NCBI GenBank assembly: GCA_030752795.1
Contig: JASMDM010000044.1
Coordinates: 17,096 to 81,095 of the forward strand
DNA: 64,000 nt
Direction: 5' to 3'
Source of the DNA: SAR202 cluster bacterium
Lineage (GTDB): Bacteria > Chloroflexota > Dehalococcoidia > Lucifugimonadales > UBA1123
Shown here: positions 11,262 to 62,205 of the stretch, one piece after another
Layout of the letters: each line of letters begins with the position of its first letter
Position numbering within the stretch: the stretch's first letter is position 1
Notes under the pieces: model-generated
Seen by the model: only the letters and a program-made list of their open reading frames with translations
Databases searched by the model: none
Told to the model about the DNA's origin: nothing
Program-made: the position numbers and the translations under genes

Positions 11262-12326
11262 TCAGGCAGTCACGCGGATGAGCTTGCCGTCGCCCAGCGA
11301 TCCCGACTCGACGATCTTGCCGATGATGACGCGTACGCCGACTCCTGCGGATTCAAGCTCGTCGATCAAGCGTGGCGCGTCGTGCGCGGGCAGTGAGATC
11401 AGCAGCCCGCCGGAGGTTTGCGGGTCGACGAGGATATCGGCTGCAGTGTCGGGCAATCCGTCGCCCCAATCCAACAGGTCTTCGACGGCGAGCATGTTGC
11501 GCGCGCCGCCTCCGGTGAGAACGCCCTCTTTCGCCAGCTCGACTGTGCCTGGCAACAGCGGGATCGCGCCGTATTCGATTGTCGCCGCGGCGCCGCTGGC
11601 GTCCAGCATGCCTCGCAGGTGCCCGAGAAGACCGAATCCGGTGGCGTCGACGCAGGCATTGACGCCGACTTTAACCATGGCGTCCGCAGCCGCGGCGTTG
11701 AGCTCGGACATCACGACAATCGCGTTCGCCAGAACGTCGTCGTCGACCACCTGGGCTCTTCCGGCGGTCGTGATGATCCCGGTGCCGATGGGTTTCGTCA
11801 GCACGAGGACGTCGCCGGGTTTCGCGCCCGCGTTGGTGACCTGTTCGCCCGGTTTGACGATGCCGGTGACAGCAAGGCCGTACTTGGGCTCCGCGTCGTC
11901 GACGGTGTGGCCGCCCGCGATCAGGACGCCGGCTTCTTTGGCCTTGGCGGCGCCACCTTTGAGAACGTTTGCCAGGAGATCTTTCGGAAGGTCGACGGGG
12001 AATCCGACGATGTTCAACGCGATGACCGGTTTGCCGCCCATGGCGTAGACGTCGCTAAGCGCGTTGGCGACGGCGATCTCGCCGAACGCAGTTGGGTCGT
12101 CGACGATCGGCGGAAAGAAGTCGACCGTCTGGACCAGCGCAAGGTCGTCGGTCAGCCGATACACGGCTGCGTCGTCGCCCGTGCTGATGCCGACCAAAAG
12201 GTTGGGGTCGGTGACTATTGGCAGCTGACGCAGAACCTGCGCCAGGTCCTCAGGACTGAATTTGGCCGCTCAACCGGCGCAAGATGCGAGGCTGGTCAGC
12301 CTCACGTGGTCGTGTACCTCGGTCAA
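11262..12326 (-). CDS. selD: selenide, water dikinase (selenophosphate synthetase), Sec-containing form; TGA at 12270-12272 decoded as selenocysteine
   Basis: The track ORF 11262..12197 starts mid-protein (VGISTGDDAAVYRL...). The same frame upstream reads TTG(12326) TEVHDHVRLTSLASCAG-TGA-AAKFSPEDLAQVLRQLPIVTDPNLLVGIS. C-A-G-U-A-A-K-F-S-P aligns with E. coli G-A-G-C-G-C-K-I-S-P (Cys17/Lys20), so the TGA sits at the catalytic Cys/Sec position. GGAG lies 9 nt upstream of the TTG. Confidence 0.9.
12243..12258 (-). promoter_or_regulatory. candidate SECIS mini-hairpin for selD
   Basis: 11 nt after the UGA: CAGUCC-UGA-GGA(C)CUG, 6 bp with one bulged C. An alternative hairpin, GCGCAG-GUU-CUGCGU, follows directly 3' of it (27 nt after the UGA). 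Folded by eye only. Confidence 0.35.
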
Positions 12327-27989: not shown

Positions 27990-28430
27990 CCCGATATCCT
28001 TTTCGCCAACCGCAACGTTGTTCGGTGACGCTCGACACGCATACGTATCGCCAGGCTATCTCATATGTACGCACAAATCGCTCGACGGGATTTCTCGACG
28101 CCAACGCTGTCGTCGGGACCCCACAGGTAAGCACACGCCCCGAGCCTGTCTGACGAACCGCCTGGGAACGCACCTCGGCGAAACGCAGGCACAAGCCTGT
28201 CACGCAAACCTAAGGGATTCTAAACCATCTCATCGGACGCGTTCAAGGCTTGCGAAATCCCTGATTGGCGGAACTGACGCGTTTTCGCTTTTTTCTTTAG
28301 GGAGGTGTCGTTTGAATCATAAGGTTATAATTAGGTGGGTTGCCACAATTCAAACAACAACGTCCGACGCTTCAGCTCGAGCGAGCTTGACTCGGCGCCG
28401 GTGTTTGCAATCGATCACGAGGCACAATCG

Positions 28431-29813
28431 ATGACGACGGGCTTTAGATCAATACCTCCCGTGAACGAGCTCTTGGCCGACAAACGGGTTGAGCAGCTCG
28501 TCGAGGTCCACTCGAGAGACGCGGTTGTCGACCTGATTCGAGAGCAACTAGACGATGTCAGAGCCGCCATATCGAACGGCGACGCGGCGCCCGGCATCGA
28601 TGACATCATCGCCCAGATCGCGCGCAAATGCGAGGAGCGATGGCGACCGTGGCCGTCAAGAGTCATCAACGGAACCGGAGTCATCCTGCACACCAACCTG
28701 GGCCGCGCGCCATTGAGCGACGATGCCGTGCGGGCGATGGAGAGGGCGGCGATCAGCTACGGCGACCTTGAGTACGATCTGTCGACCGGCAAGCGCGGCT
28801 CTCGCCACGAGCACGTGTCCCGTCTCGTGTGCGAGGCGACCGGCGCGGAAGCGGCCATGGTCGTCAACAACAACGCTGCGGCGGTGATGCTCGGACTCGC
28901 TGCGCTTGCGGCGGGACGGGAGGTCATCGTGTCGCGCGGCGAGGCGGTGGAGATCGGCGGAGGATTTCGGATACCGGACGTTCTGAAGCAGAGCGGCGCC
29001 GAGCTCGTCGAAGTCGGAACCACAAACCGCACCTATGCTAGAGATTACGAGACGGCGATCACCGAACGGACCGGCGCGATACTCGCCGTCCACGCATCGA
29101 ATTTCAAAGTGATGGGCTTCACCCACGCCCCGACGATCGCCGAATTGGTGGATGTCGGACGGCGCAAAGACGTCCCCGTGCTACACGATCTTGGTTCCGG
29201 TTGCCTGCTCCCGACGGAGCCCTACGGCCTGGCGCCCGAGCCGATGCCGCAGGACGCGGTGCGCGCCGGAGTCGACCTCGGGTTCTTCTCCGGCGACAAG
29301 TTGCTCGGCGGACCGCAAGCCGGCATTATCATCGGCAGCCTTGAATCGGTTGCGGTAGTCGCCAGGCATCCGCTGGCCAGGGCGATGCGGATTGACAAGA
29401 TAAACATGGCGGCTTTGGCGGCAACGCTGTTGCACTACATCCGCGGCGAAGCCGAAACCGCCGTTCCGATATGGAAAATGATTTCCGCGACCGACGATGC
29501 GATCAAACAAATGGCGTCGGACTGGGCGGAGAGCGCCGGTGGCGAGGCGACTGTCATGGAATCGAGATCGGCGATTGGCGGCGGAAGCCTCCCCGGCGAG
29601 ACGCTGCCGACATGGGTCGTGAGTCTGCCGACGCACAGGGCGCTCCATGGGGCCGAAGGCGTCGCTCGCGCGCTTCGCGAGAGCACTCCGCCGGTCATCG
29701 CGCGGATCGAGGATGACAAGGTTCTAGTCGACCCGAGGACCGTGTTGCCGGACGACGAGCCCGCGTTGCTCGAAGCGATGAAGCGCGCGGTCGAGATCGG
29801 AGGCGGCGAATGA
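28431..29813 (+). CDS. selA: L-seryl-tRNA(Sec) selenium transferase
   Basis: MTTGFRSIPPVNELL...VINGTGVILHTNLGRAPL...MVVNNNAAAVML...FSGDKLLGGPQAGII (PLP-lysine region). GAGG lies 8 nt upstream of ATG 28431. Confidence 0.92.
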   Translation: MTTGFRSIPPVNELLADKRVEQLVEVHSRDAVVDLIREQLDDVRAAISNGDAAPGIDDIIAQIARKCEERWRPWPSRVINGTGVILHTNLGRAPLSDDAVRAMERAAISYGDLEYDLSTGKRGSRHEHVSRLVCEATGAEAAMVVNNNAAAVMLGLAALAAGREVIVSRGEAVEIGGGFRIPDVLKQSGAELVEVGTTNRTYARDYETAITERTGAILAVHASNFKVMGFTHAPTIAELVDVGRRKDVPVLHDLGSGCLLPTEPYGLAPEPMPQDAVRAGVDLGFFSGDKLLGGPQAGIIIGSLESVAVVARHPLARAMRIDKINMAALAATLLHYIRGEAETAVPIWKMISATDDAIKQMASDWAESAGGEATVMESRSAIGGGSLPGETLPTWVVSLPTHRALHGAEGVARALRESTPPVIARIEDDKVLVDPRTVLPDDEPALLEAMKRAVEIGGGE

Positions 29814-35778: not shown

Positions 35779-36897
35779 GACCGTGATGCCTGAGACTGGG
35801 AGAACGGTCCCCAAGCATTGATCACGAAGACAGAAAGTGAAATGATCGGGAGAGAAGCCGGATTCGAGCGTTTGGTCACGGCCTTCGAGAATGGTGAGGT
35901 CATCGGTTCGGTGACTGGAGAGACCCACCCAACCTACTACGGAGGATGTGGGACGCGGTGCACTAAACTGTTGCTGTGTTCACCACCAAGGACCGCGCTG
36001 GCGGCGGGTAGCTGGCGCAAGCGTACTTGGTCGCTCTGACGTTCGCTTAGGAGGGTGGGTATCCGCTATGCATGCTGGGGTTCAGTTGACGTGTGACGAC
36101 GAGTCGGAGAATCTCGTCTTCGCTGTCGATACGCGAATCCCGAACGGCAACCAGGCTTTGTCCGCGACCGCCTTTCGGCAGAACCTCATTGAGGGAGTCT
36201 CGCCGCCCGTTCCCTCTTGGCCTGGCTGAGCTGTAACCGCATCAAAATAGAACGCCTTCAGGTCTTCCAAGAACTCCAGGGCGGTGACTGGGTACTCACC
36301 CGAACATCCTCGGACCCAACATTGAAAGGCTGTCGCCCCGCCGATGAAGGCACGCGGTCGATGAGATCGCGACCCGCCGCTCTGCGACCGGAGGCCCTTC
36401 CACCCATGGGCGGCCCCTTCGTACACGGGGCATTCGATGTTTAGCAAGCTTGTTCGAACAACCTCCTATGACTGGTTCGGCAGGACCATTTCTCACCTTC
36501 CCCAGTCACGTCCTGCGATGTTGGCACGTCGCCCTTGCTCGGTCAACTTCAGGAAATGCTATCTAGCATTGACTGGCGGGCGGTTGACTAGCGCCGCGCA
36601 AAACAGCCGGAGCGTTTCCCATTTTGAATGCATCCCGGCGTGATTCGATCGCCTCTACCCTCGTGCGACGTCCAAGGCAGAGCCAGCCGTGGGACAGCAC
36701 CTGCATCCGCATTGCAGCTCATGTCCGATTCGGCGAGTTGACCATTGAGCCGCGACTGCTAATTCTCGGGTCGAACCACAGACGCTCGACAATCCGGGGT
36801 TTGTTGATATAATCGCCCTATCATCCCCGAGGCGTATCGGCGACGACACGGTCGGTGCGCAGATGACATGTATCGGAAAGTAGAAGGAGAGTCGCCC

Positions 36898-37416
36898 GTG
36901 GTTGACCAACAAGGCCAAATATTGAGACCGGAGACGATGATCGAGGAGTTCAAGAAAAACGGCGTGACGCACATCATCACGATTCCGGACTCCGAAACGA
37001 ATTACCTGTACGAGCTCATGGAGAAAGATCCTTCGCTGGACATCATCCCGGTGGCCCGCGAAGGGGAGACCATGAGCACTGCGCTGGGCCTGAACATCGC
37101 GGGCAAAGTGCCGGTGTGCCTGATCCAGAACACCGGCATGATGGAAGCCGGCGACTCGATCCGCGGGATGGCGCTGGACGCCGGGTTCCCGTTGGTGATG
37201 GTGATCGGTTACCGAGGCTGGACTCGCCACGGCGTCGTCAACGACACGGCCGCGAAATATACCGAGCCGTTCCTGCACGCGTTCGGGATAAATTACTACC
37301 TGGTCGAGACCGATGACGACGGCTCACGCATATCGTCGGCGTTCGAAGAGGCGCGAGCCACGAAGCGGCCGGTGGTCGTGCTGATCGGCGACGAGTACCA
37401 CGGTTTCAACAGGTAG
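36898..37416 (+). CDS. ThDP-dependent sulfopyruvate/phosphonopyruvate decarboxylase-like, alpha (N-terminal PYR) subunit
   Basis: ...GVTHIITIPDSETNYLYE...IPVAREGETMSTALGLNIAGKVPVCLIQNTGMMEAGDSI.... A GTG at 36898 is preceded by AAGGAG 8 nt upstream. The track start at 36868 is an alternative. Confidence 0.8.
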   Translation: MVDQQGQILRPETMIEEFKKNGVTHIITIPDSETNYLYELMEKDPSLDIIPVAREGETMSTALGLNIAGKVPVCLIQNTGMMEAGDSIRGMALDAGFPLVMVIGYRGWTRHGVVNDTAAKYTEPFLHAFGINYYLVETDDDGSRISSAFEEARATKRPVVVLIGDEYHGFNR

Positions 37417-37476
37417 ACCCGCTCCGGACGTGGGGCACACCAACATTGTTACGAATGGGAATCATCGGAGGTCATC

Positions 37477-38067
37477 TTGATCGAAGCAACGGATGTATTC
37501 GAAGCATTTCTGCCGCATAGAGGCGACGCCATTGTGTCCGCCACCGGCACGGCGGGCAGCCATTGGAGAGATTTCAGCACCAACACAAGCAGAGACATCT
37601 CTCTCGGCGGCGCCATGGGCCACACGACGCCTGCAGCATTCGGTTTGGCGATGGGCCTGCCCGACGAAAAGGTCGTAGTGTTCGACGCAGAGGGTTCGCT
37701 GCTAATGAACCTCGGCGTGCTTGCGACAATCGCGGGCAAAAAGCCAGCCAACTTCTACCATTTCCTGTTGGACAACGGTTGCTACGCCACGACCGGCGGT
37801 CAACCTGTGCCCAACTCGCAGGAGATCAACTACGCAGGCATGGCCAGGGAAGCCGGTTACGCCTCGACGTACGAGTTCGACGACCTTGAAGAGTTGGTCA
37901 CCAATCTCGAAAGCATCATGCAGGAAACCGGACCGGTGTTCGTCGCGATCAAGGTCTTCGCAGAAGTCCAGAACCTACCTATCGCCCTTCGAACACGCCG
38001 GCCGAGCCGCAGCCGAATGGAGACAATCGTCGACCTACAGAACGAGATCGGAATCAGCGCCGAATAG
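37477..38067 (+). CDS. ThDP-dependent sulfopyruvate/phosphonopyruvate decarboxylase-like, beta (PP-binding) subunit
   Basis: TTG start after GGAGG. ...LGGAMGHTTPAAFGLAMG...VVVFDAEGSLLMNLGVLATIA...LLDNGCYATTGGQ is a ThDP/Mg-binding GDG-like region, with AEGS in place of GDGS. Confidence 0.8.
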   Translation: MIEATDVFEAFLPHRGDAIVSATGTAGSHWRDFSTNTSRDISLGGAMGHTTPAAFGLAMGLPDEKVVVFDAEGSLLMNLGVLATIAGKKPANFYHFLLDNGCYATTGGQPVPNSQEINYAGMAREAGYASTYEFDDLEELVTNLESIMQETGPVFVAIKVFAEVQNLPIALRTRRPSRSRMETIVDLQNEIGISAE

Positions 38068-52393: not shown

Positions 52394-53587
52394 ATGGCGG
52401 CTCAGGACAAACTGATCTATCTGGACAACGCGGCCACGACCGCGGTCCGGCAAGAAGTGCTGGACGCGATGTACCCGCACTTCGTCACGAGTTTCGGCAA
52501 CCCGTCGGGCATACACGGCGTCGCCCAAGAAGCTCGAAAAGCCGTCGATGAGTCCAGAGAAACCATTGCCGGAATACTTGGCTGTCGCATCGGCGAGGTG
52601 GTGTTTACGAGCGGCGGCACCGAGGCAGACAACGCGGCAATTAAGAGTGTCGCCCTTGCCTTGCGCCATGTTGGCAACCACATCATCACGACCAGCATTG
52701 AGCACCACGCCGTGCTGCACTCCTGCCATCAGCTCGAGCAGTTCGGTTTCGACGTGACGTACCTGCCGGTCGATTCGGACGGCCTCGTCAATCCTGACGA
52801 CGTAGCCAACGCGATCACGAACCAGACCATCCTGGTCAGCGTAATGCTGGCCAACAACGAAATCGGCTCCATACAGCCCATGAGTTCCATCTCGGACGTT
52901 GTGCGGCAGGAATCCGATCGGCGCGAAAAAAAGATCGTCATGCACACCGACGCCGTCCAGGCCGCCGGATATCTGGACCTCAACGTTCGCGAGTTGGGCG
53001 TCGACCTTCTGAGTCTGTCAAGCCACAAATTTCACGGACCTAAAGGTGTCGGATTACTGTACGTGAAGCGAGGAACGCCGTTCGAGCCTCAAATGACGGG
53101 AGGCGGCCAGGAACGCGAACGCAGATCCGGCACCGAGAACGTCCCCGGCATCGTCGGGATGGCGCATGCGCTTCGCCTCGCCACCGACGAGCGCGAAGAG
53201 CTGTCGGCGCGACTAACACCGATGCGAGATCGGATCATCGAAGGGCTCCAGCGCGATTTGGATCGAGTCAGGCTCAACGGTCACCCGACTCGGCGGCTCG
53301 CCAACAATGTGAACATCTCCTTTGAGAACGTCGAAGGGGAGCCTATACTGCTGGGTCTGGACCTTGCAGGCATATGTGCCTCCAGCGGCAGCGCCTGCTC
53401 GTCGGCGTCGCTTGAGCCGTCGCACGTTCTGCTCGCCATCGGACTCGACGCTGACCTGGCTCAGAGCAGCCTGCGCGTCACACTGGGCCGAGACAACACC
53501 GATTCAGACATCGATTATCTGTTATCAGTACTGCCGGATTTGGTGGCGCGGTTACGCCAGATGCCATCACTGTCGGGAGTTAAATAG
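52394..53587 (+). CDS. cysteine desulfurase (NifS/IscS class V aminotransferase)
   Basis: IYLDNAATT..., [12 protein letters not shown] (PLP Lys), SSGSACSS (active-site Cys). Confidence 0.92.
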
Positions 53588-53611
53588 ACCATCGGACAGG
53601 AAGTTACACAT

Positions 53612-54199
53612 ATGCGAATCCCATTTCACCGGGCGGTGCGTTCGGCGCCCACACGGCCATTCCCCCGTCGATGCGAAATCTCGTTCGCGGCCGCGCTGGT
53701 CATGGCGACGTTGTTGACAGTCGCTGCTTGCGGCAGCGACCCCGGAATCCACTACGCCAGGGGTCGCAGCATCGAAATCCATGCCACGAATCCGGTGACT
53801 GTCGAAAAAGTCGCCTTCACGGACACTAAAGGCGGGCACCGAGTCGTAAGGCCGCGCGCGTCGAATCGCGAGCTCGCGGTTGTCAAGGTGACCGTCGTCA
53901 ATCGGACCAGCACCGTGATGCCGTTGTTGATCCAACCGGATTCTGCCAAGCTCGGTGATCGACGGGGCGAGCGGATCGTCGCGGTTGACCCGTTCGGAGT
54001 TTCGGCAACCACGGACGTTGAGGTCAACGAAGAAAACCTGTACTCACCCTTGCTCTGGGGTGAAGTTCCGCTCGAACGCCAGATGCAAGTGCAAGGCTGG
54101 ATGGTTTTCGACGTGCCTAAAGGCCTGACCCTCGGTTCCCTGTTTTGGGACGAAGTGGATGAGGTAACCGTGGACTACATCGAGTACTTCAGGCGATAA
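53612..54199 (+). CDS. DUF4352-like lipoprotein
   Basis: The signal and lipobox read ...LLTVAACGS. The beta-rich body reads ...LAVVKVTVVNRTSTVMPL...GWMVFDVPKG. The family call is from memory. Confidence 0.6.
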   Translation: MRIPFHRAVRSAPTRPFPRRCEISFAAALVMATLLTVAACGSDPGIHYARGRSIEIHATNPVTVEKVAFTDTKGGHRVVRPRASNRELAVVKVTVVNRTSTVMPLLIQPDSAKLGDRRGERIVAVDPFGVSATTDVEVNEENLYSPLLWGEVPLERQMQVQGWMVFDVPKGLTLGSLFWDEVDEVTVDYIEYFRR

Positions 54200-54373
54200 C
54201 TCCGAAGATCCGTCACGACGAACATCGCCGGACCGGCATCCACTTTCCCGGTACGCAACATCATGGATATCCGGCGCCGAAGTGCGATTCGTGAATCTAT
54301 TCTAAGAACGCCGCATCCGATATAATGAGGTCCAACTCAGTCGGACCCACATAGAAAACCGGTGGAGGAATCG

Positions 54374-54700
54374 ATGGCACACCCTATTGTAGTTACCGAC
54401 GCGAATTTTGAGGAAGAAGTTGCTGGGTCCGATACGCTCGTCGTGGTGGACTTCTGGGCCGAGTGGTGTGGTCCCTGCAAGATGATCGCACCCATCGTCG
54501 AGCAACTCGCTGACGAGTACGACGGCAAAGTCAAATTCGCGAAACTCGATGTTGACTCGAACCCGCAAACCGCGATGAACTTCGGCATTCGCGGCATCCC
54601 GGCCCTTCTGATCTTCAACGACGGCAAGCCCGTTGACACGGTCGTCGGCGCGGTGCCCAAGTCCGTGCTCAAAAAACGGGTCGACGCCGCGATCTCTTAG
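54374..54700 (+). CDS. trxA: thioredoxin
   Basis: MAHPIVVTDANFEEEV...VVDFWAEWCGPCKMIAP...GIRGIPALLIF. GGAGG lies 5 nt upstream of ATG 54374. Confidence 0.95.
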   Translation: MAHPIVVTDANFEEEVAGSDTLVVVDFWAEWCGPCKMIAPIVEQLADEYDGKVKFAKLDVDSNPQTAMNFGIRGIPALLIFNDGKPVDTVVGAVPKSVLKKRVDAAIS

Positions 54701-54919
54701 GCGCCTGACGGCGGGGCAACCCAAGGACAAAGACCCGCCGGAATCGCTTGCCTGAACACAACGAGATATAGCCGACCTCGCGCTTTGTGCGCTAGGCCGG
54801 TAGTCTTGCCCGAAATCTTCGGCTCGTCATCCGTTCGCGGTGTCGGGTCGGCGAAACTTCGCGACCGCGTGGCATCAAGATCGGTGTCCGCGGATTGGGA
54901 ACCGATCGAAGTTGCACAT

Positions 54920-55017
54920 GGGAGCGGATGGGGCCTGGTGGCTCCTGCGGTCTTCAAAACCGTTGGCGGCAACCCTGCGGTTGGCGCGGTGGGTTCGACT
55001 CCCTCTCGCTCCCGCCA
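54920..55017 (+). tRNA. selC: tRNA-Sec (anticodon UCA)
   Basis: GGGAGCGG-AU-GGGGCC-UGGU-GGCUCC-U-GCGGU-CUUCAAA-ACCGU-[long variable arm GGCGGCAACC-CUGC-GGUUGGCGC]-..GGG-UUCGACU-CCC..-UCGCUCCC-G-CCA. Hand folding gives an 8-bp acceptor stem, a 6-bp D stem with a 4-nt loop, a 7-nt anticodon loop with UCA at 54954-54956, a variable arm of about 25 nt, and an encoded CCA. These are the bacterial tRNA-Sec hallmarks. Confidence 0.9.
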
Positions 55018-55320
55018 CCCGTGTGCCCTGAACCGCGCCCCTCAATATTGGCTACGATTGATGATCGCCGCGCCTAACCGTGAGTGATCCCGCTCCCCCG
55101 ACCGTGCGTCCCATCATGTTCCGTCTTTCAACGCGCTGGGTAATATCCCACACCGGACAGTTTGTCGCCACACGTCGGCAGATTACTGCCGTGAGTTCGG
55201 CGGTGAACCATGGTTTCCCAAGCCTGTTGTCGGTTAAATATTGATATGGGAACTTGCTCACGCTAGCGTTTCTGATTTATCAATTCCCGAGTCGCGGTGG
55301 CTCGGTTGGGAGATCGCAGG

Positions 55321-55617
55321 ATGGTCGAATTTTCGACGACTGAACGGGCGGACAGTGCCAGCGAGCATTTCACGGCTCTGAAGAAATACGCGAACCGCGT
55401 GGTATTGGAGGGTCAGACGCTCTCGGAGGCCGAGGCGGAAGATAAAGAAGCTCGATTGCAGGAAGTTCGCGAGTTCGGCGACAGATACGGATTCTCGGAC
55501 AAAGACGTGGTCAAGCTGATCTTCGGCAGGATTTTCAGCGACCGCAAACAGTGCGGATGCCCGACGTGTCGTGCCCGTCGCCAAATGCGCATCGACAAAG
55601 CGGGCAGGGGAGCGTAG
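55321..55617 (+). CDS. hypothetical protein (98 aa) with C-terminal CGCPTC motif
   Basis: GGGAGA lies 7-8 nt upstream of ATG 55321. MVEFSTTERADSASEHFTALKKYANRVVLEGQTLSEAEAEDKEARLQEVREFG...KQCGCPTCRARRQ. A strong terminator follows. No family recognised. Confidence 0.45.
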   Translation: MVEFSTTERADSASEHFTALKKYANRVVLEGQTLSEAEAEDKEARLQEVREFGDRYGFSDKDVVKLIFGRIFSDRKQCGCPTCRARRQMRIDKAGRGA

Positions 55618-55691
55618 TCCGACTACGCGGAGAATGACCTGGCTCGCGCGAGCGCCACGGCAGTTCTCAGGCCGTGCACGAAACAACAAAC

Positions 55692-55722
55692 GAAAAGGGA
55701 CGGTCTCGCGACCGTCCCTTTT
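55692..55722. terminator. bidirectional rho-independent terminator
   Basis: AAAAGGGACGGTC-tcgc-GACCGTCCCTTTTT, lying between convergent genes 55321..55617 (+) and 55744..56286 (-). Confidence 0.75.
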
Positions 55723-55743
55723 TGAGTCTCCGAATTGGCTCGT

Positions 55744-56286
55744 TTAGCCCTGAGTCAGCAGTATCCCGAGGACCTCAGGAGCGGCTTGGGTGGCCCTTTC
55801 TCGAAGGCCGTCGGCGTCCAGGCTGCCCAGAGGGTGCGGAAGCACCACGTACGGGTAGTCTGGGATTCCGCCAAGCTTCGCCATGGCCTCGGCACTGTTA
55901 GCGAATGGCTCGGTGCAAATCACTGCCGTCGGCAAGCCTTTGCGCTCGAAGGTGATTCCGTCGTGCACACTGCACGACGAGCAGGACCCTCAATCGCCCG
56001 ATGCGGTAATGATTACGTCACACTCCTTCGCCATCTCCTCGATGATCGGAGCGGGACACGGTCGCGAGGCGTTGCCCTTGTTGCGCTCGACGACGGTTTT
56101 GAAGCTGTAGCTGTCTGCCAGCACTTCACTGATCGCGGTCAGCAACTTTTCCGAATTGAGTTTGCCGTTGGCCAACAAGCCGACGACTTTGCCGTCCAGC
56201 GTGGTCGGGCGCTCGGCAACGACCGCGTGAGCAGGTATCGGCTGCACCGTAGGGTCGAGCACTCCCAACTTGGTTGCGATTACCAT
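55744..56286 (-). CDS. U-G-S-C motif selenoprotein (180 aa; TGA at 55990-55992 read as Sec); function unknown
   Basis: Track ORFs 55990..56286 and 55744..55968 share one frame. The joined sequence is MVIATKLGVLDPTV...AKECDVIITASGD-U-GSCSSCSVHDGITFERKGLPTAVICTEPF...LGILLTQG. GGGAGG lies 7 nt upstream of ATG 56286. A SECIS hairpin starts 11 nt after the UGA. selC, selA and selD are all in this window. Confidence 0.85.
55960..55978 (-). promoter_or_regulatory. SECIS element (mini stem-loop) of the UGSC selenoprotein mRNA
   Basis: UGA followed by 11 nt (GGGUCCUGCUC), then GUCGUGCA-GUG-UGCACGAC. This is a perfect 8-bp stem with a G/U-containing apical loop, matching the spacing of the minimal E. 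coli fdhF SECIS. Confidence 0.65.
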
Positions 56287-56328
56287 AAACGAACCTCCCT
56301 TTCGGTCGCGAGACCTTTCACCCCTTGG

Positions 56329-57360
56329 TTATCCCTGGACCCTCTTGGTCACCGACTGAGAGCCGGCGCCTGCGCCCCACAGCGGTATTATACTCGAAAA
56401 CGCGCCAGCCGCACCGCCGGCCACCAATATCGTGATGTTGTCCAGCTCGGACGCCACCGGAACCATCCTTGACGATCCATCGGCGTTGGGCGGCACGACC
56501 TCGCCGGCTGCGCGCCAGTCCGCGTCAGACCGCTGGGACGTTTCGAACAAGAACTGTCGCACCTGGGCCTTCGACCAGCCCGCCGCTTTGATGTTGCCGA
56601 TGTGCTCCGGGCACAACACGGCGACGAGCTCGTTTTGCGTCGGACCCACCGAGAACATCGCGTCTCGGAAACTTACCAGAATCTCCTCCGGCGCCTGTGC
56701 GTGATGGTTGGCAACTTGAGTGCCCGACAACGCTGCGAATATCGACACGGTGCTGTCGCCGGCATCGAAGCCGCGAGTCGCGTGCATGGGCTCCCACGGA
56801 TTGACGTCGTCCGCTTCGGCCATGCACCAAGAGAACTTGCCCGGATGCCCGAGCGTCGCCTTGTCGATTTCACCGGAAGACGAGCCCGTGGCGTTGATGA
56901 TGATGAGCCTGATCGCTCGACCGATCGTCGCGTTGGCCCGATGCCCGGGACCGAACACGCTCACGCCCGAATTGATGCCGATCTCTTTCGCGATGGGACC
57001 GCTGACCACAGTGAGCACGGCGGCGCCCATCGTCGACGCCGTGATGGCGTGGAGGTTGAACTCCGGCTCGCACATGGCTTCGACGGCGGTCACGATGACC
57101 GGAAAGTACTCGGGCAGACAACCAGCCATGACCGCGTTGACGGCGATCTTCTCCGCCGTGATCACGCGGCCCTTGGTCGGCTCGGTTCCCACGATCTCGG
57201 ACGGCGATCGACCGGCGGCGGCCAGACATGCCAGCACGCGATCGGGCGTCGGCGGCGTGATGGGCAAGCCGTCCGTCCAACCTCTTCGCAGGTACTCCTC
57301 GGCTATCTCCGACTCTTCGTCGAATTCCAATATCGCTGAAGTCAAATTAGCGCCTGTCAT
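56329..57360 (-). CDS. conserved hypothetical protein (343 aa), probably co-transcribed upstream partner of the UGSC selenoprotein
   Basis: GGAGG lies 5 nt upstream of ATG 57360. MTGANLTSAILEFDEESEIAEEYLRRGWTDGLPITPPTPDRVLACL...AVNAVMAGCLPEYFPVIVTAVEAM.... It ends 42 nt before the UGSC start. Composition is coding-like, but I recognise no family. Confidence 0.75.
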   Translation of the reverse strand: MTGANLTSAILEFDEESEIAEEYLRRGWTDGLPITPPTPDRVLACLAAAGRSPSEIVGTEPTKGRVITAEKIAVNAVMAGCLPEYFPVIVTAVEAMCEPEFNLHAITASTMGAAVLTVVSGPIAKEIGINSGVSVFGPGHRANATIGRAIRLIIINATGSSSGEIDKATLGHPGKFSWCMAEADDVNPWEPMHATRGFDAGDSTVSIFAALSGTQVANHHAQAPEEILVSFRDAMFSVGPTQNELVAVLCPEHIGNIKAAGWSKAQVRQFLFETSQRSDADWRAAGEVVPPNADGSSRMVPVASELDNITILVAGGAAGAFSSIIPLWGAGAGSQSVTKRVQG

Positions 57361-57576
57361 CCTACCCTCCACGTTCGCAACGCAGCCGTTGCAGATTGGC
57401 TGGTAATCTAGACCACAGCCTCAATAATAGCAAGTTCGACGAACCCTGCAACTCGGAAATTTCGTTTGAGAGGGCCAATACTGCCGTCCGGTTTATGACT
57501 GGCTGCATCGTGCCCTATGCTAAAATTGCCTCGAACAACAGCTCAAGGCGACTCACGACTCCCGGGAGACGATTGT

Positions 57577-58488
57577 ATGACCCAACAGGAAGCTAGGCCC
57601 AGGTTCGAGTCGGTGCCAACTGCCGCTTCCGATTCACCACCGAAATTCGCCCATCCGTCTGAAAAGGAATTCGCGCAGATATTGGACTTCTACGGATTGC
57701 GATGGTCGTACGAACCGTACTCGTTCCCGCTTCGTTGGGACGGCGACGCGATCGCGGAAATGCTGACGCCCGATTTCTACCTGCACGACCTCGACCTGTA
57801 CCTCGAATTGACCACGATGAAGCAGAGCCTGGTCACGCAGAAGAACCGGAAGATCAGACGGATTCGAGAGATATATCCGGATATCAACATTCGGCTGCTC
57901 TACAGGAAAGACTTCCACCGGCTGCTGGCCAAATTCGGATTCGGACCGTTGGCCGAGTCTGGCGTCCCGGGAATCAACAAGGTTCTTCTATCCGACGGGC
58001 AAGTCCAGCAGAAGGTTGACGAGCTCGGCAAAGCGCTGTCGAAAGACTACGCTCAAAAGCAGCCGGTCCTGGTCGGTGTGCAGCGAGGCATGGTGTGCTT
58101 CATGGCGGACCTGATGCGAAAGATCACGCTGCCCGTCATGATGGACTTCATGTCGATCTCGCACTATCGCGGAGCCGACGGCGCCGGTCTCCGGATCACG
58201 AAGGACTTGGACATCGACCTGTACGGCCACGACGTCGTTTTGGTCGAGGACATCGTCGACACCGGCATGACGCTGAACTACCTGTTGGGCCATCTACGGT
58301 CAAAAGGGGCGGCGTCGGTCGAGGTGTGCACGCTCCTGGACAAACGAGCCCGTCGCATCGTGGACGTGCCGATAAAGTACGTGGGCTTCGAGGTCCCGGA
58401 CGAGTTCCTGGTGGGGTACGGACTGGACTATCAGGAGAAGTACCGGAACCTGCCGTTCATTGGAGTGCTGCGGCCCGAGGGCGGGTAG
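57577..58488 (+). CDS. hpt: hypoxanthine phosphoribosyltransferase with a roughly 140-aa N-terminal extension of unknown function
   Basis: The C-terminal roughly 180 aa read ...VLVGVQRGMVCFMADLMR...VVLVEDIVDTGMTLNYL (PRPP loop)...VGYGLDYQEKYRNLPFIGVL. The N-terminal part is MTQQEARPRF...EFAQILDFYGLRWSYEPYSFPL...LTPDFYLHDLDLYLELTTMKQ.... Confidence 0.85.
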   Translation: MTQQEARPRFESVPTAASDSPPKFAHPSEKEFAQILDFYGLRWSYEPYSFPLRWDGDAIAEMLTPDFYLHDLDLYLELTTMKQSLVTQKNRKIRRIREIYPDINIRLLYRKDFHRLLAKFGFGPLAESGVPGINKVLLSDGQVQQKVDELGKALSKDYAQKQPVLVGVQRGMVCFMADLMRKITLPVMMDFMSISHYRGADGAGLRITKDLDIDLYGHDVVLVEDIVDTGMTLNYLLGHLRSKGAASVEVCTLLDKRARRIVDVPIKYVGFEVPDEFLVGYGLDYQEKYRNLPFIGVLRPEGG

Positions 58489-58787
58489 GGGGCCGACGAG
58501 CGATCAAACGCGCCCCGAAGTAAGCAACGGGACGCCATCGCCTTACCGGCCAGGTCCGCATGGCAATGAATTATGTCAGACACAAGAACGCCCCAAGGGA
58601 CTTCGCCTATCTGCTCATCGCCCCGCTGCCTCCGCGGGTGGGCCGCGTCGGCTCTCATGCCAGAAGCATGTGGCTTGGTTCCTTGGGACTTGATTAATAC
58701 TACCAAATATCCGGAGATTTATCAATGCGCTTGGACCCTCGCGGTGCATGACAGACCCGTGTGTTTCTAGTCTTGGGAACCTAGGCT

Positions 58788-59545
58788 TCACGAGACGATC
58801 ATGAACTCCATCTCGTCCATGTTCAGAGGTTTACGCTCCCATCGGGCCGCATTTCCGCGCCAGACGTGTTGCACGTCGAAGCCTGCGCTTTCCACGATGG
58901 CGACCAGCTCCGGCGGGATGAAGAGCCGCTCAGGGTATGACCTTTCTACGGGTCCACCGGGCATGTCGAATTCCTCAGTGATGCGTTGCGTCATCGTGGC
59001 AGGATCGAACTCAGCTGACTCGATTTGTTCGGGCGTGATTTGCCGAATCGTCCAGTAGCCGTTCAAAGTGGTCAATACAAACGGCGAACCGGGCTTCAAC
59101 GTGCGGTGGATGTTCTCGAGAATCGCTGAATCGTGTTCGACCGGATCTTCGCCGTGGCGAGCAATCCAAGCGAGCCCTCGCATATGCAGATGGCGGCGTC
59201 GTGCACCGGGCGAAGACTGAATCGGGTGGCGTTCGCCCGCACCCAGTCCGGCCGTTGGTCGAGGCTGGCCGCCGACGCCATCGCCTGCCGGAGCATGCCA
59301 CCAGATAGATCTACATTGGTGACACGGTAACCTCTGCGAGCGAGTTCGATCGAATGGCGACCAGTCCCGCATCCGACGTCCAGAATTCGTGCTCCCGGCC
59401 GAAGATCGAGTTCTTCGACCAGGAAATCGACCTCCCACAGCGTGCCCCTGGTGAAATTGTTGGTCATGTATATCGGCGCATGCGCGTCGAAGAATTTGTT
59501 CCAAAAGTGCTTGGTTCCTCCGCGAGGCGAGTCACCGGAATCCAT
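58788..59545 (-). pseudogene. class I SAM-dependent methyltransferase with a 1-nt frame break near 59150-59165
   Basis: AGGAGG lies 8 nt upstream of ATG 59545. MDSGDSPRGG...ILDVGCGTGRHSIELARRGYRVTNVDLS (motif I)...AAICICEGSLGLLA then runs into junk and a stop at 59096. The other frame continues GEDPVEHDSAILENIHRTLKPGSPFVLTTLNG... to 58788. Confidence 0.75.
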
Positions 59546-60310: not shown

Positions 60311-60459
60311 CCAATGAGGACGTGGAGCCGGCCGTGGTCGCCTATGTTCATATCAACCACATCGGATAGCGTCCGATAATTCAAACGCGATTGCCGACAC
60401 GCTCGTTCGCGTTGATCGGTCGTCGGGGTGGTGATATCCTTGGCCCGCCGGATGGCGCA

Positions 60460-62205
60460 ATGCCGGCGAAAACCTTGTTTCGACACCGGAGGACTACATT
60501 GAGTACACCCACCGTCACGACCGTCACCAAGACCGAGGCCAGAGCCGCTGGCGGGATGGTGGCCACTAAACACGTCTACGCGACTGAAGCCGGCCTCGAG
60601 ATGCTCCGAGCCGGAGGCAACGCTGTCGATGCCGCCGTTGCCGCGTGCTTCGCTGTTGGCGTCGTGGAACCGGAATCCAGCGGAATCGGCGGGGGCGGAT
60701 ATCTCGTATACGAGGTGGGCGCACGGGGCGGCGTGTTCGGCTTCCCGATGCGCGGGCCGTTGGCGGCGACTCCGGACATGTACGAGCTCACCGGCGAAGA
60801 GTCGGTGGGCGGTTTCGGTTGGGCAGGGGTGACCGACAACGCCAACATCGAGGGCTACCGCTCCATCGCGACCCCCGGGGCCGTATCGGGTCTCTGCCTG
60901 GCCCACTCGCGCCTGGGCAAGCTGCCGCTCGTCGAGGTCTTGGCGCCGGCAGTTCGGCTGGCGCGCGAAGGCTATTCTCTCGGATGGCACAACCTCTACG
61001 CACGAGGCAATCAAGCGGGAATGCTCTTCAAGTACGACGAACTCCGGCGCGTCATGATGCCGGGCGGACAGATGCCCGTGCGGAGAGGCCTCAACGAGGC
61101 GCGCGTGTGCAATCCTGAGCTCGCCAACATCCTCGAGGCGATCGGTCGAGACGGACCGGATGCCTACTACAAAGGCGATTTCGCCAAGGCGCTGGTCGCC
61201 GACATCCAGGCGAACGGCGGAATCCTGTCCGAGCGGGACCTAGCCGAGTACAAGCCGTTCGTGTGGGACAGCGGCCTCGAATTCGACTATCGCGGTCTGC
61301 GAATCAGGGTGCCTCCGTACGCGAGCGCCGGCATCACCAGCGCGATGACGCTGAAGCTGCTCGAAGGCTTCGACGTGTCGTCGATGGGGCACAACAGCGT
61401 CGACATGCTTCACGCCTACATATCGTCCGCGCGGCTCGCGTACGCCGATCGATTCGAATACCTCGCCGATCCCGAGTTCGCCGACGTTCCGTGGAATGGG
61501 TTGGTATCCGACGATTACACCGCACGCCGTCAGCAGGAGATCGACATGGCGAGTCTCGTCCGGGCCACCCCAGGTGACCCGTGGCGAGAAGAAGGTCGCG
61601 AGTCGACGTCGATGCTCGCGGCTAGCGCCCCGGCCCTCGACAATGGGACGACACACTTGTGCGCCATGGACGCCGACGGCAACGCGGTCTCGCTGACGAA
61701 CACCGTCATGTCCGGGTTCGGCTCCGGAATCATCCCGAAGGGATCTGGCGTGGTGATGAACAACGGCATGATGTGGTACGACCCTGTGCCGGGACGCGTG
61801 AACTCGATCATGCCCGGCAAGTTCCCGCTGAACAACATGACCCCGATGCTCGCGATGGACGGCTCCGGCGTCAAGCTCGCGGTCGGCGCTTCGGGCGGAC
61901 GCATGATCACCAACTGCGTCACGCAGCTTTTGGTCAAGATCATGGACTTTGGCATGGGACCGCAAGCCGCGATCGACTCGCCTCGCGTCGATTGCAGCCT
62001 GGCGCAAACCCTGATCGACCCGAGGCTGGACGCCAGCGTCGTCTCCGAACTCGAGTCCCGAGGACACCGACTGCGCCCGATCAGCGGCGAGTTCCAGGCC
62101 GGCTTCACGACGTTCGCCAGCCCAGTCGTGATCTTGCGAGAGGCGCCGGATTCGTTCCGCGCCGGCGTCGACACGTTCCACTCGGCGTACGCTGAGGGGG
62201 TGTAG
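60460..62205 (+). CDS. ggt: gamma-glutamyltransferase
   Basis: ...GGMVATKHVYATEAGLEMLRAGGNAVDAAVA...SGIGGGGYL...DNGTTHLCAMDADGNAVSLTNT (autoprocessing Thr)...SGFGSGI...GASGG. The start is uncertain between 60391 and 60460. Confidence 0.93.
   Translation: MPAKTLFRHRRTTLSTPTVTTVTKTEARAAGGMVATKHVYATEAGLEMLRAGGNAVDAAVAACFAVGVVEPESSGIGGGGYLVYEVGARGGVFGFPMRGPLAATPDMYELTGEESVGGFGWAGVTDNANIEGYRSIATPGAVSGLCLAHSRLGKLPLVEVLAPAVRLAREGYSLGWHNLYARGNQAGMLFKYDELRRVMMPGGQMPVRRGLNEARVCNPELANILEAIGRDGPDAYYKGDFAKALVADIQANGGILSERDLAEYKPFVWDSGLEFDYRGLRIRVPPYASAGITSAMTLKLLEGFDVSSMGHNSVDMLHAYISSARLAYADRFEYLADPEFADVPWNGLVSDDYTARRQQEIDMASLVRATPGDPWREEGRESTSMLAASAPALDNGTTHLCAMDADGNAVSLTNTVMSGFGSGIIPKGSGVVMNNGMMWYDPVPGRVNSIMPGKFPLNNMTPMLAMDGSGVKLAVGASGGRMITNCVTQLLVKIMDFGMGPQAAIDSPRVDCSLAQTLIDPRLDASVVSELESRGHRLRPISGEFQAGFTTFASPVVILREAPDSFRAGVDTFHSAYAEGV

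Follow-up and report, generated by a model that had tools for sequence, protein, structure and literature searches.

Two open reading frames (ORFs) that lie in one frame and are interrupted by a TGA codon raise the question of whether they form a single gene, in which the UGA is read as selenocysteine (Sec), and, if so, what the encoded protein does. Such an arrangement is found on the minus strand of a 64,000-nucleotide stretch of DNA from a SAR202 cluster bacterium (contig JASMDM010000044.1; the whole stretch is referred to here as the window). An initial annotation of the window, made from sequence alone, proposed that the two frames together encode a hidden selenoprotein with a U-G-S-C motif and a SECIS element.

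The reading frame and its selenocysteine codon

Direct reading of the sequence confirmed the joined frame, the strong ribosome-binding site (RBS) and the bidirectional terminator contained in that proposal. The features of the gene are as follows.

55744..56286, minus strand: gene of a UGSC-family selenoprotein with 180 codons and a stop, a single frame through an in-frame UGA (sequence, NF041046 and PF24696)
55990..55992, minus strand: Sec codon UGA, residue 99 (TGA in 86 of 88 related copies, Cys in homologs)
56299-56294, minus strand: RBS GGGAGG of the UGSC gene, with a 7-nt spacer to the ATG (read directly)
55722-55693, no strand assigned: terminator hairpin common to the UGSC gene and a convergent plus-strand ORF, 13 pairs, 7 of them G-C, with T-runs on both strands

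The gene starts with an ATG at 56286-56284 and stops with a TAA at 55746-55744, in the same frame as the TGA at 55992-55990. The joined product of 180 amino acids reads ...ECDVIITASGD-U-GSCSSCSVHDGITFERKG... and contains the motif D-U-G-S-C-S-S-C, the first five residues of which are D98-U99-G100-S101-C102. With Sec substituted by Cys for the scans, the protein matched the NCBIfam model NF041046, 'UGSC family (seleno)protein', at 149.2 bits (cut-off 125; residues 31-176 on profile positions 1-146 of 147) and the Pfam model PF24696, 'UGSC', at 197.9 bits (cut-off 25). Both scores exceed the curated cut-offs, and the family label that the initial annotation gave is right.

The family is abundant in aquatic metagenomes. 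Zhang & Gladyshev (2007/2008) named it 'UGSC-containing protein' and cited Hyphomonas neptunium ABI76733.1 as the example, and 255 Sec forms versus 21 Cys forms have been counted in the GOS data. The statement that no function has been assigned to it still holds in a 2026 review, where the family is uncharacterised (PMC13188914). Since UGSC proteins have been known since 2007, the gene in the window is a new and publicly misannotated member rather than a new kind of selenoprotein. The description 'hidden' is thus appropriate for the public records of the source organism, in which only a truncated 98-aa hypothetical protein is found at this gene, but not for the family, which was already catalogued.

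The initial annotation had proposed a comparison of homologs at the TGA column. Among 88 related copies, from loci mostly of SAR202/Dehalococcoidia, column 99 is TGA in 86 and TGT in two, while 151 of 156 full-length family representatives have Cys at this column and 145 of the 156 have Cys at column 102. The 81 codons 3' of the TGA show in-frame conservation in the 86 TGA-bearing copies. None of the observations that would have refuted the proposal was made: homologs do not end functionally at the TGA, a Cys/Sec column aligns, and the hairpin described below is conserved. A genetic-code reassignment of TGA was considered and rejected, because TGA is the ordinary stop of 14 of the 40 window genes. 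That the UGA terminates translation, leaving a pseudogene or separate 98- and 74-aa proteins, is practically excluded: gene callers split the gene at the TGA everywhere, as in the GenBank records of the source organism (the 99-aa fragments all end in ...SGD, and one caller read the TGA as Trp), but frame, amino acids and hairpin are retained downstream of the TGA in 86 copies, full-length homologs have Cys at the column, the family-invariant residues D109, E114, G117, P119 and H151-P152 all lie 3' of the UGA, and the 74-aa ORF begins at an internal GTG within a conserved helix and lacks an RBS of its own. We conclude that 55744-56286 is a single gene for a 180-aa UGSC-family selenoprotein, with the UGA at 55992-55990 as its almost certain, position-specific Sec codon.

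Genes for Sec synthesis had also been reported within the window, and we recovered all three with family models.

54920-55017, plus strand: tRNA-Sec (selC), convergent and 0.7 kb downstream of the UGSC gene (ARAGORN; Rfam RF01852, 71.9 bits)
28335-29813, plus strand: selA, L-seryl-tRNA(Sec) selenium transferase (TIGR00474, 545.2 bits, cut-off 267.9)
11262-12326, minus strand: selD, selenophosphate synthetase (TIGR00476, 353 bits, match from profile position 12)

The selD gene is itself Sec-containing, with an in-frame UGA at 12272-12270 (...ASCAG-U-AAKFSPEDL). No selB was found among the approximately 40 window genes scanned; in Paracoccus ferrooxidans, selB lies about 3 kb from a Sec-type UGSC gene.

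The hairpin downstream of the UGA

Two nested RNA structures, the larger one tentative, lie at or just downstream of the Sec codon.

55959..55979, minus strand: upper hairpin of the SECIS, a 9-bp stem (CGUCGUGCA / UGCACGACG) capped by a GUG loop (fold, codon conservation, Paracoccus comparison)
55948..55992, minus strand: possible longer SECIS, whose weaker lower helix joins GAGGGU, made up of the last two bases (G and A) of the UGA and the four that follow, to ACCUUC (minimum free energy structure)

The 8-bp hairpin GUCGUGCA-GUG-UGCACGAC, noted earlier as beginning 11 nt after the UGA, is present as described, and one extra C-G pair extends it to 9 bp (55979-55959). The region 55940-56000 folds with -29.9 kcal/mol (z = -3.9), a stability reached by none of 200 shuffled sequences. 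Codons +5 to +8 (TCG TGC AGT GTG) show zero synonymous variation in 83 distinct sequences and codon +9 (CAC) is replaced by CAT in one of 82, whereas further Ser, Val, Cys and His codons of equal conservation have a synonymous entropy of 0.2-2 bits. The hairpin core is identical across contigs of 32-60% GC, including those of 32-44% GC, and the opening G and U of the apical loop are invariant. Cys-type genes that encode CGSCSSCSV use different codons, and the hairpin is absent from them. In the Sec-type gene of Paracoccus ferrooxidans the 11-nt spacing and the GUG loop are kept, while one C-G pair has become G-C, a compensatory change, and one G-C pair has become G-U. The core pairs never vary in the 71 SAR202-type hairpins counted, which therefore show no covariation, and the argument from covariation comes from this one Paracoccus comparison. 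The lower helix is more doubtful, because 81.7% of its cells are paired and it shows no covariation. An Rfam scan of 53000-59000 returned tRNA-Sec as its sole match and no SECIS family.

These observations demonstrate strong selection at the RNA level on a hairpin 3' of the UGA that has the layout of a bacterial SECIS. On the sequence evidence, the gene is almost certainly that of a selenoprotein with a functional SECIS, as predicted.

The element had been called a textbook SECIS with the geometry of the E. coli fdhF element. In the minimal version of the latter, said to have been described by Liu et al. in 1998, the upper stem-loop reportedly lies 11 nt downstream of the UGA. The UGSC hairpin resembles the fdhF SECIS and the bSECISearch rules in standing directly 3' of the UGA with an 8-bp stem from 11 nt, in an apical loop that opens with G-U about 19 nt past the UGA, and in the possible lower helix that includes the UGA. 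It differs in having no bulged U, in its loop of only 3 nt (GUG), and in that most relatives (46 of 71) carry an A.C mismatch under a 7-bp core, at what is the lowest pair of the 8-bp stem; SelB binding is putative. The textbook description therefore goes a little too far.

The upstream partner gene and the thioredoxin system

Two further genes near the Sec codon bear on the function of the protein.

56329..57372, minus strand: partner gene (343-347 aa) of an orphan family; it stops 42 nt before the UGSC ATG
54362..54700, plus strand: thioredoxin (WCGPC), candidate reductant (sequence; the syntenic gene in the related loci L001 and L004 carries PF00085)

The partner has no match in Pfam or NCBIfam, and its large 345-aa family comprises at least 7915 relatives (clusters). 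It is located directly upstream of UGSC, on the same strand, in most of 80 genome loci, and the adjacency is found in Chloroflexota, Actinomycetota, Alpha- and Betaproteobacteria and haloarchaea; Cys-type UGSC loci of other phyla also have the partner. On plasmids, the taxa with UGSC matches are also those with partner matches, at adjacent coordinates. The two are also naturally fused: 13 long representatives match the partner profile after their UGSC domain, with E values down to 3.5e-96, and single-polypeptide fusions occur in about a dozen lineages. In terms of gene order and fusion, UGSC and the 347-aa orphan protein encoded upstream form a fixed pair. The two genes in the window are probably co-transcribed, and we regard an obligate functional coupling of the candidate pair as highly likely. 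Because of the UGSC-partner fusions, we infer that the partner family probably corresponds to 'Unknown_1' of PMC2398784.

The fold of the partner is predicted confidently and is without a PDB counterpart: a Foldseek search of the model against the PDB gave nothing below E 0.01 (TM about 0.2), and the sequence itself gave chance-level PDB matches only. Cys85 is invariant in both partner alignments, while Cys183 is invariant in the SAR202-type alignment and is missing from the conserved list of the broader one. Two loops of the partner, F140-G143 and T173-G178, are conserved as well, but the model resolves them poorly.

The neighborhoods of the pair repeatedly include genes of the thioredoxin system. 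The operon order is trxB-trxA-partner-UGSC in Arthrobacter, trx-partner-UGSC with overlapping genes in Nonomuraea, and partner-UGSC-trxB in Roseovarius, and in the Variovorax operon trxB is located two genes upstream of the partner-UGSC pair. Culturable Cys-type hosts include Arthrobacter ERGS1:01, Roseovarius THAF8 and Variovorax SRS16, and LysR regulators and transporters adjoin the operon. In one case UGSC is fused to Pyr_redox_2, a thioredoxin-reductase-like domain, with the partner gene adjoining. In the SAR202 locus the thioredoxin gene is convergent to UGSC and not co-operonic with it, and trxB is not adjacent. Taken as a whole, it seems reasonably likely that UGSC is fed by the thioredoxin system.

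Proposed function and comparison with known systems

AlphaFold2 modelled the Cys homolog P0002, which is 53% identical to the UGSC protein of the window, with a pLDDT of 91.8 as five successive beta-alpha units. Among the Foldseek PDB matches listed for this model all were flavodoxin-like (TM about 0.5) and none was a thioredoxin-fold protein; searches of the PDB with the single UGSC sequence and with an 80-sequence profile returned chance-level matches only. The model suggests that UGSC adopts a flavodoxin-like (beta-alpha)5 domain, with G-D-U-G-S-C predicted where helix 3 begins, on the C-terminal edge of the sheet, and the family-invariant residues N40, K42, K70, D90, D109, E114 and H151-P152 apparently placed together with it.

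The reading that we favor makes UGSC the selenol/thiol subunit of a two-component redox enzyme that is supplied by thioredoxin. In such an enzyme U99 and C102 would alternate between a selenol/thiol and a selenenylsulfide form, electrons would pass from NAD(P)H through TrxB and TrxA to U99/C102, and they would be spent in a reaction shared by UGSC and the partner. This reaction would probably be reductive and belong to the breakdown of a small organic or amino compound. The parallel would be GrdB and PrdB, in which the same UxxC(xxC) motif serves to cleave C-N bonds reductively. A more specific version, which we offer only tentatively, is that UGSC, the partner and TrxB/TrxA constitute an unrecognised two-component (seleno)reductase, widespread in aerobic marine, soil and halophilic prokaryotes, in which UGSC would be an offshoot of the Sec domain of glycine/D-proline reductase 'protein B' and would carry out selenol-mediated reductive cleavage of a partner-bound substrate.

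Alternatively, UGSC could be an electron shuttle only, with the chemistry taking place on the partner, where Cys85 and Cys183 would be the disulfide that is reduced. The fusion of UGSC to a TrxR-like flavoprotein does resemble TrxR-Trx fusions, trxB stands beside the pair without trxA in Roseovarius and Variovorax, and the partner has the conserved cysteines described above. Against this, Sec is rarely selected in mere carriers, and Sec forms outnumber Cys forms in the GOS data; Lys, Asp, His and Asn residues are invariant in UGSC besides the redox pair; GrdB and PrdB, its sole recurrent remote matches, use the equivalent Sec catalytically; and a separate TrxA is encoded in the Arthrobacter and Nonomuraea operons, so that a second pure carrier would be redundant there. 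We judge this to be rather unlikely.

A role of the pair in sulfur or selenium trafficking, with U99/C102 carrying a persulfide or perselenide from a NifS-like desulfurase to NifU-type scaffolds or SelD, appears improbable. It is suggested by a NifS-like gene located 2 kb from UGSC in the window and likewise in 16 related loci, by NifU-like domains fused to some UGSC homologs (34.7 bits in P0169, weak in P0008 and P0276), by the cysteine desulfurase, TusA and DsrE genes near the Paracoccus locus, and by the tRNA-Sec gene, which adjoins UGSC in 15 of 52 Sec-type loci scanned, within a subclade. However, the NifS and selC adjacencies are restricted to the subclade closest to the window, the constants across phyla are the partner and the thioredoxin system rather than desulfurases, and Cys-type members occur in genomes without evident Sec machinery nearby. 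The other neighbors of UGSC vary between lineages and define no pathway (gamma-glutamyltranspeptidase (GGT), peptide permeases, RidA, NifS and hydrolases).

Still less probable is a stand-alone thioredoxin-fold thiol/selenol oxidoreductase with a general antioxidant or disulfide-exchange role. The selenoproteome literature classifies it in this way, with the review that lists the family placing UGSC among Trx-like-fold proteins (PMC13188914), and a U-x-x-C at the N-terminus of a helix is reminiscent of CxxC redox motifs. The predicted topology is nevertheless one of five beta-alpha units and not beta-alpha-beta-alpha-beta-beta-alpha, the listed structural matches include no protein of that fold, and UGSC is almost never alone, as across phyla a specific partner lies next to it or is fused with it. 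Furthermore, the many conserved polar residues outside the CxxC suggest a dedicated site.

The selenoprotein call itself is routine, given a curated NCBIfam model and the presence of the family in selenoproteome surveys since 2007, and its practical gain is a corrected annotation for SAR202/Dehalococcoidia genomes, in whose public records the gene is split or truncated. UGSC is among the most abundant aquatic selenoprotein families, and its context now provides a testable system. What goes beyond the initial annotation, namely the linkage to the partner and to the thioredoxin system, the flavodoxin-like prediction and the GrdB/PrdB matches, amounts to a testable functional lead: a large partner family, a TrxB/TrxA supply and a possible distant kinship with GrdB/PrdB together define a two-gene target for biochemistry.

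Compared with the UGSC family at large, the protein of the window is a regular member: it matches over its full length, has about 180 residues and carries both G-D-U-G-S-C and the Sec/Cys column. Across the 156 family representatives, conservation does not extend to the third Cys of U-x-x-C-x-x-C, whereas the SAR202/Dehalococcoidia clade additionally fixes it, its codon lying within the SECIS stem.

Like thioredoxin and the TrxR-Trx fusions, UGSC has a C/U-x-x-C predicted at a helix N-terminus, and like those fusions it is linked to thioredoxin reductase by genome position and by fusion. Unlike thioredoxin, it is predicted to be flavodoxin-like and has a dedicated partner instead of a broad range of clients.

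The remaining comparison is with the Sec-bearing subunits of the glycine and D-proline reductase group. When 80 diverse UGSC members were searched at E <= 0.01, matches were obtained to GrdB (23), GrdF (8), PrdB (8), TIGR01918 (6) and GrdH (4), and no other remote family was recurrent among the 80. The UGSC protein of the window matches TIGR01917 at 20.3 bits (E 2e-4; family cut-off 602.2) and TIGR01918 at 16 bits (family cut-off 65.45); the matches to these two models and to GrdH align residues 69-164 approximately with profile positions 318-406, and PF07355 gave no match to this protein at E <= 0.1. GrdB/F/H carry UxxCxxC (PMC6778437), and UxxC is the motif recorded for GrdB and PrdB (PMC9312934, PMC13188914). 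UGSC is like GrdB/F/H (TIGR01917, PF07355) and PrdB (TIGR04483) in this remote match around the Sec and in the UxxC that begins with it, and like GrdB/PrdB it would work with a second subunit encoded beside it. In clostridia, grd operons contain genes of the thioredoxin system.

The suggestion that the partner is GrdE/PrdA-like was unsupported, because nothing but the fused UGSC domains gave a score when 21 diverse partner sequences were run against NCBIfam at E <= 1; no GrdE/PrdA model matched the partner or its relatives even at this threshold. Similarly, GrdE/PrdA (the pyruvoyl proprotein), GrdA, GrdC and PrdC are absent from the annotated neighbors of UGSC. The partner thus distinguishes the system from GrdB/PrdB, as do UGSC scores far below the family cut-offs. 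At about 180 aa, UGSC is equivalent to no more than a C-terminal portion of GrdB, whose profile spans 430 aa. We infer from the profile matches that UGSC may be distantly related to the part of the GrdB/PrdB 'protein B' that bears the Sec, and GrdB/PrdB-like chemistry in UGSC is conceivable, although we would not presume it. In contrast to the amino-acid-fermenting hosts of GrdB/PrdB, the hosts of UGSC are largely aerobic marine and soil bacteria and haloarchaea.

The UGSC gene and its in-frame UGA

Reading of the sequence confirmed that the two ORFs joined across a TGA by the initial annotation form one frame. From an ATG at 56286 (-), preceded by GGGAGG (56299-56294) with a 7-nt spacer, it runs to the TGA at 55992-55990 and is then open through to TAA at 55746-55744 (-), giving a product of 180 aa (...ECDVIITASGD-U-GSCSSCSVHDGITFERKG...). 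The strong ribosome-binding site and the bidirectional terminator described with it are both present, the latter as a 13-pair hairpin 3' of the stop codon with T-runs on both strands, and the selC, selA and selD genes said to share the window were all located:

11262-12326 (-), selD, selenophosphate synthetase
28335-29813, selA
54920-55017, tRNA-Sec (selC)

The selD gene is itself a selenoprotein gene, with an in-frame TGA (12272-12270) within the N-terminal ...ASCAG-U-AAKFSPEDL and a match to TIGR00476 that starts only downstream of this TGA. In 15 of 52 Sec-type loci (those with TGA at the residue-99 column), which belong to the subclade nearest the window, a convergent tRNA-Sec follows UGSC at a distance of 0.1-3.4 kb; this adjacency is lineage-specific synteny and no family trait.

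Scored with Cys in place of Sec, the protein reaches 149.2 bits on NCBIfam NF041046 'UGSC family (seleno)protein', above its cut-off of 125, and 197.9 bits on Pfam PF24696 'UGSC', so the family label given in the initial annotation is correct. A 'UGSC-containing protein' has been on selenoprotein lists since 2007 with its function unknown (PMC1976440), and a 2026 review keeps UGSC as uncharacterised (PMC13188914), in agreement with the earlier remark that no function had been assigned. Because the gene is a regular member of an already catalogued family, the finding as stated has low novelty. GenBank has a 'hypothetical protein [SAR202 cluster bacterium]' identical to the 98-aa N-terminal fragment, and for SAR202 MAGs it lists the gene in this form only (HJO82962.1, MDP6072783.1 and others). 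A collection of 15 billion sequences does not contain the full-length protein; the gene is therefore misannotated in the records of its source organism. In its relatives, too, the gene is broken into fragments of ~99 aa and 46-74 aa, and one gene call rendered the TGA as Trp.

The UGA is very probably decoded as selenocysteine, with a hairpin under selection. We scanned one genome per species, obtaining 214 relatives, of which the best 80 loci, nearly all from Dehalococcoidia/SAR202 MAGs, were combined with metagenome contigs and the window for comparison of column 99. This column, at which the initial annotation had suggested looking for Cys or TGA, holds TGA in 86 copies and TGT in two, and the downstream frame reads GSCSSCSVHDG... 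in all of them. Full-length homologs of other lineages have Cys at this column, as do 151 of 156 family representatives, and 145 of the 156 keep the second Cys. The family-invariant D109, E114, G117, P119 and H151-P152 all lie C-terminal to the UGA. Reassignment of the code is ruled out, since 14 of 40 window genes end at TGA as a normal stop codon.

The hairpin downstream of the UGA

The hairpin reported 11 nt past the UGA is present as GUCGUGCA-GUG-UGCACGAC, and comprises 9 bp with one extra C-G pair (55979-55959); the minimum-energy fold has an extra lower helix pairing the G and A of the UGA plus the next four bases. The 61-nt segment proved stable on folding (-29.9 kcal/mol, z = -3.9 with dinucleotide shuffles as reference). 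Codons +5 to +8 past the UGA are TCG TGC AGT GTG in all of 83 distinct sequences, and codon +9 is CAC in 81 of 82 and CAT once; at other codons of UGSC for equally conserved Ser, Val, Cys and His, synonymous entropy is 0.2-2 bits. The 17-nt core UCGUGCAGUGUGCACGA is unchanged in relatives from contigs of 32-44% GC, a composition that would disfavour its codons, yet they are kept. Cys-type genes (Cys codon at column 99) of Nonomuraea and Arthrobacter encode the peptide CGSCSSCSV from different codons and lack a hairpin of this kind.

A formal pair count gives no covariation among hairpins of the SAR202-type clade, because the core never varies there. Covariation is supplied by an ortholog of the Sec type, which is encoded on a plasmid of Paracoccus ferrooxidans with selB ~3 kb away and is split in its annotation into two hypothetical ORFs. 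Its hairpin, GUCGUGGA-GUG-UCCAUGAC, has the 11-nt spacing and the loop seen in the window; in the 5' arm Cys becomes Trp and in the 3' arm GUG is replaced by the synonymous GUC, turning C-G into G-C, and one further pair changes from G-C to G-U. The hairpin behaves as a SECIS would. Its description as a 'textbook SECIS' with the geometry of Escherichia coli fdhF holds for the hairpin and the 11-nt spacing, but not for the bulged U of fdhF, which it lacks, and the pair below the 7-bp core, G-C in the window, is an A.C mismatch in 46 of 71 relatives. Overall, the selenoprotein had been correctly recognized and every sequence feature described is present.

One Cys-type gene (L088:8294-8353) has a 9-bp hairpin (GCGUCAUAU/AUAUGACGC) where Sec-type genes carry the SECIS, which could be what remains of an earlier SECIS, or a coincidence.

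The partner gene and the thioredoxin linkage

UGSC occurs in an obligate pairing or fusion with the gene just upstream, referred to here as the partner:

56329-57372 (-), partner gene, 347 aa, 42 nt upstream of UGSC

The partner has no match in Pfam or NCBIfam, and its relatives make up at least 7915 database clusters (90% identity), all unnamed or 'hypothetical'. In most of 80 genome loci it directly precedes UGSC and shares its strand, in a few it is 2-3.5 kb away on the opposite strand, and in the fetched DNA of two it was not detected. When neighbouring ORFs of 88 loci were clustered, only the partner (85/88) and UGSC (83/88) were conserved throughout. The partner also adjoins Cys-type UGSC in Nonomuraea, Arthrobacter, Roseovarius, Variovorax, Paracoccus, Natrinema, Halalkalicoccus and uncultured lineages, and plasmid records place both in the same taxa at neighbouring coordinates. 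Thirteen long family representatives are natural UGSC-then-partner fusions (E down to 3.5e-96), very probably corresponding to the 'UGSC/Unknown_1 fusion' described in 2008 (PMC2398784). The partner carries a conserved G-W-T-D-G-L-P-x-x-P-P motif and an invariant Cys85, and a Foldseek search of its AlphaFold2 model (pTM 0.84, pLDDT 80) against the PDB returned nothing below E 0.01. A groundwater Chloroflexi contig (L079:2314-5540) has two tandem partner-UGSC pairs with TGA in both; in the second UGSC copy a stem codon is Thr for Ser and one base pair is lost.

The pair is frequently linked to trxB and trxA:

Arthrobacter: trxB-trxA-partner-UGSC
Nonomuraea: trx-partner-UGSC, genes overlapping
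Roseovarius: partner-UGSC-trxB
Variovorax: trxB two genes upstream of the partner/UGSC pair
Metagenomic lineage L090: UGSC fused to a thioredoxin-reductase-like Pyr_redox_2 domain, partner gene adjacent

Just past the convergent tRNA-Sec there is a thioredoxin gene, both in the window and in its closest relatives. Other UGSC fusions carry a NifU-like domain, and several Cys-type loci have RidA upstream of the pair.

Gamma-glutamyltranspeptidase (GGT), peptide permeases, hydrolases, LysR regulators and solute transporters are recurring but lineage-variable neighbours. GGT (window 60370-62202 (+)) is the commonest after the partner, in 31 of 88 related loci, and Dpp-type peptide permeases lie near the pair in 24; they could point to a role in the metabolism of peptides or amino compounds, or reflect nothing more than synteny within lineages. 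In Nonomuraea and Arthrobacter (loci L087 and L095) trx-partner-UGSC is flanked by genes for phosphosulfolactate synthase (ComA) and a CocE/NonD-type hydrolase, and sulfopyruvate-decarboxylase-like genes are found at window 36808-38064; a tie between the pair and organosulfonate metabolism is conceivable. The N-terminus of a hypoxanthine phosphoribosyltransferase homolog (57499-58485 (+)) is extended by ~160 aa that match no family, and this extension is kept in syntenic genes of related loci (L001, L004 and others). A 203-aa ORF between a NifS-like gene and thioredoxin (53588-54196 (+)) also has no family match, and a gene of similar size takes its position in the closest relatives (212 aa in L001, 159 aa in L004).

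Predicted fold, proposed chemistry and remote similarity to selenoprotein B

The AlphaFold2 model of P0002, a Cys homolog 53% identical to UGSC, has five beta-alpha units (pLDDT 91.8) with the UGSC motif where the third helix begins, and the Foldseek hits listed for it are all flavodoxin-like folds (TM ~0.5); the 'Trx-like fold' given in the literature is therefore unsupported. We propose a redox-active selenol/thiol pair of U99 and C102, which would lie at the C-terminal edge of this flavodoxin-like sheet and probably be surrounded by conserved Asn, Lys, Asp and His residues. Thioredoxin would re-reduce the pair, and the reducing power would drive a reaction carried out with the partner.

The window protein gives weak but consistent matches, in its Sec-containing region, to GrdB, GrdH and a generic selenoprotein-B model. 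Among 80 diverse family members, matches at E <= 0.01 were to GrdB (23), GrdF (8), PrdB (8), the generic model (6) and GrdH (4), with no further family recurring. These are the B selenoproteins of glycine, sarcosine and betaine reductase (GrdB/F/H), which have UxxCxxC after Sec (PMC6778437), and of D-proline reductase (PrdB); a UxxC motif is recorded for GrdB and PrdB (PMC9312934). Membership of UGSC in the GrdB/PrdB family is rejected, because its scores are far below the cut-offs and GrdE/PrdA, GrdA and GrdC genes do not accompany it. Useful leads to the function of an abundant orphan selenoprotein come from the partner, the link to thioredoxin genes, the newly predicted fold and the probable relationship with GrdB/PrdB. 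Given the recurrent remote matches and the shared UxxC motif, UGSC is probably best viewed as a stand-alone protein distantly related to the Sec domain of protein B. We weakly favour the idea that Sec would attack the substrate directly, as in PrdB and GrdB, rather than only relaying electrons.
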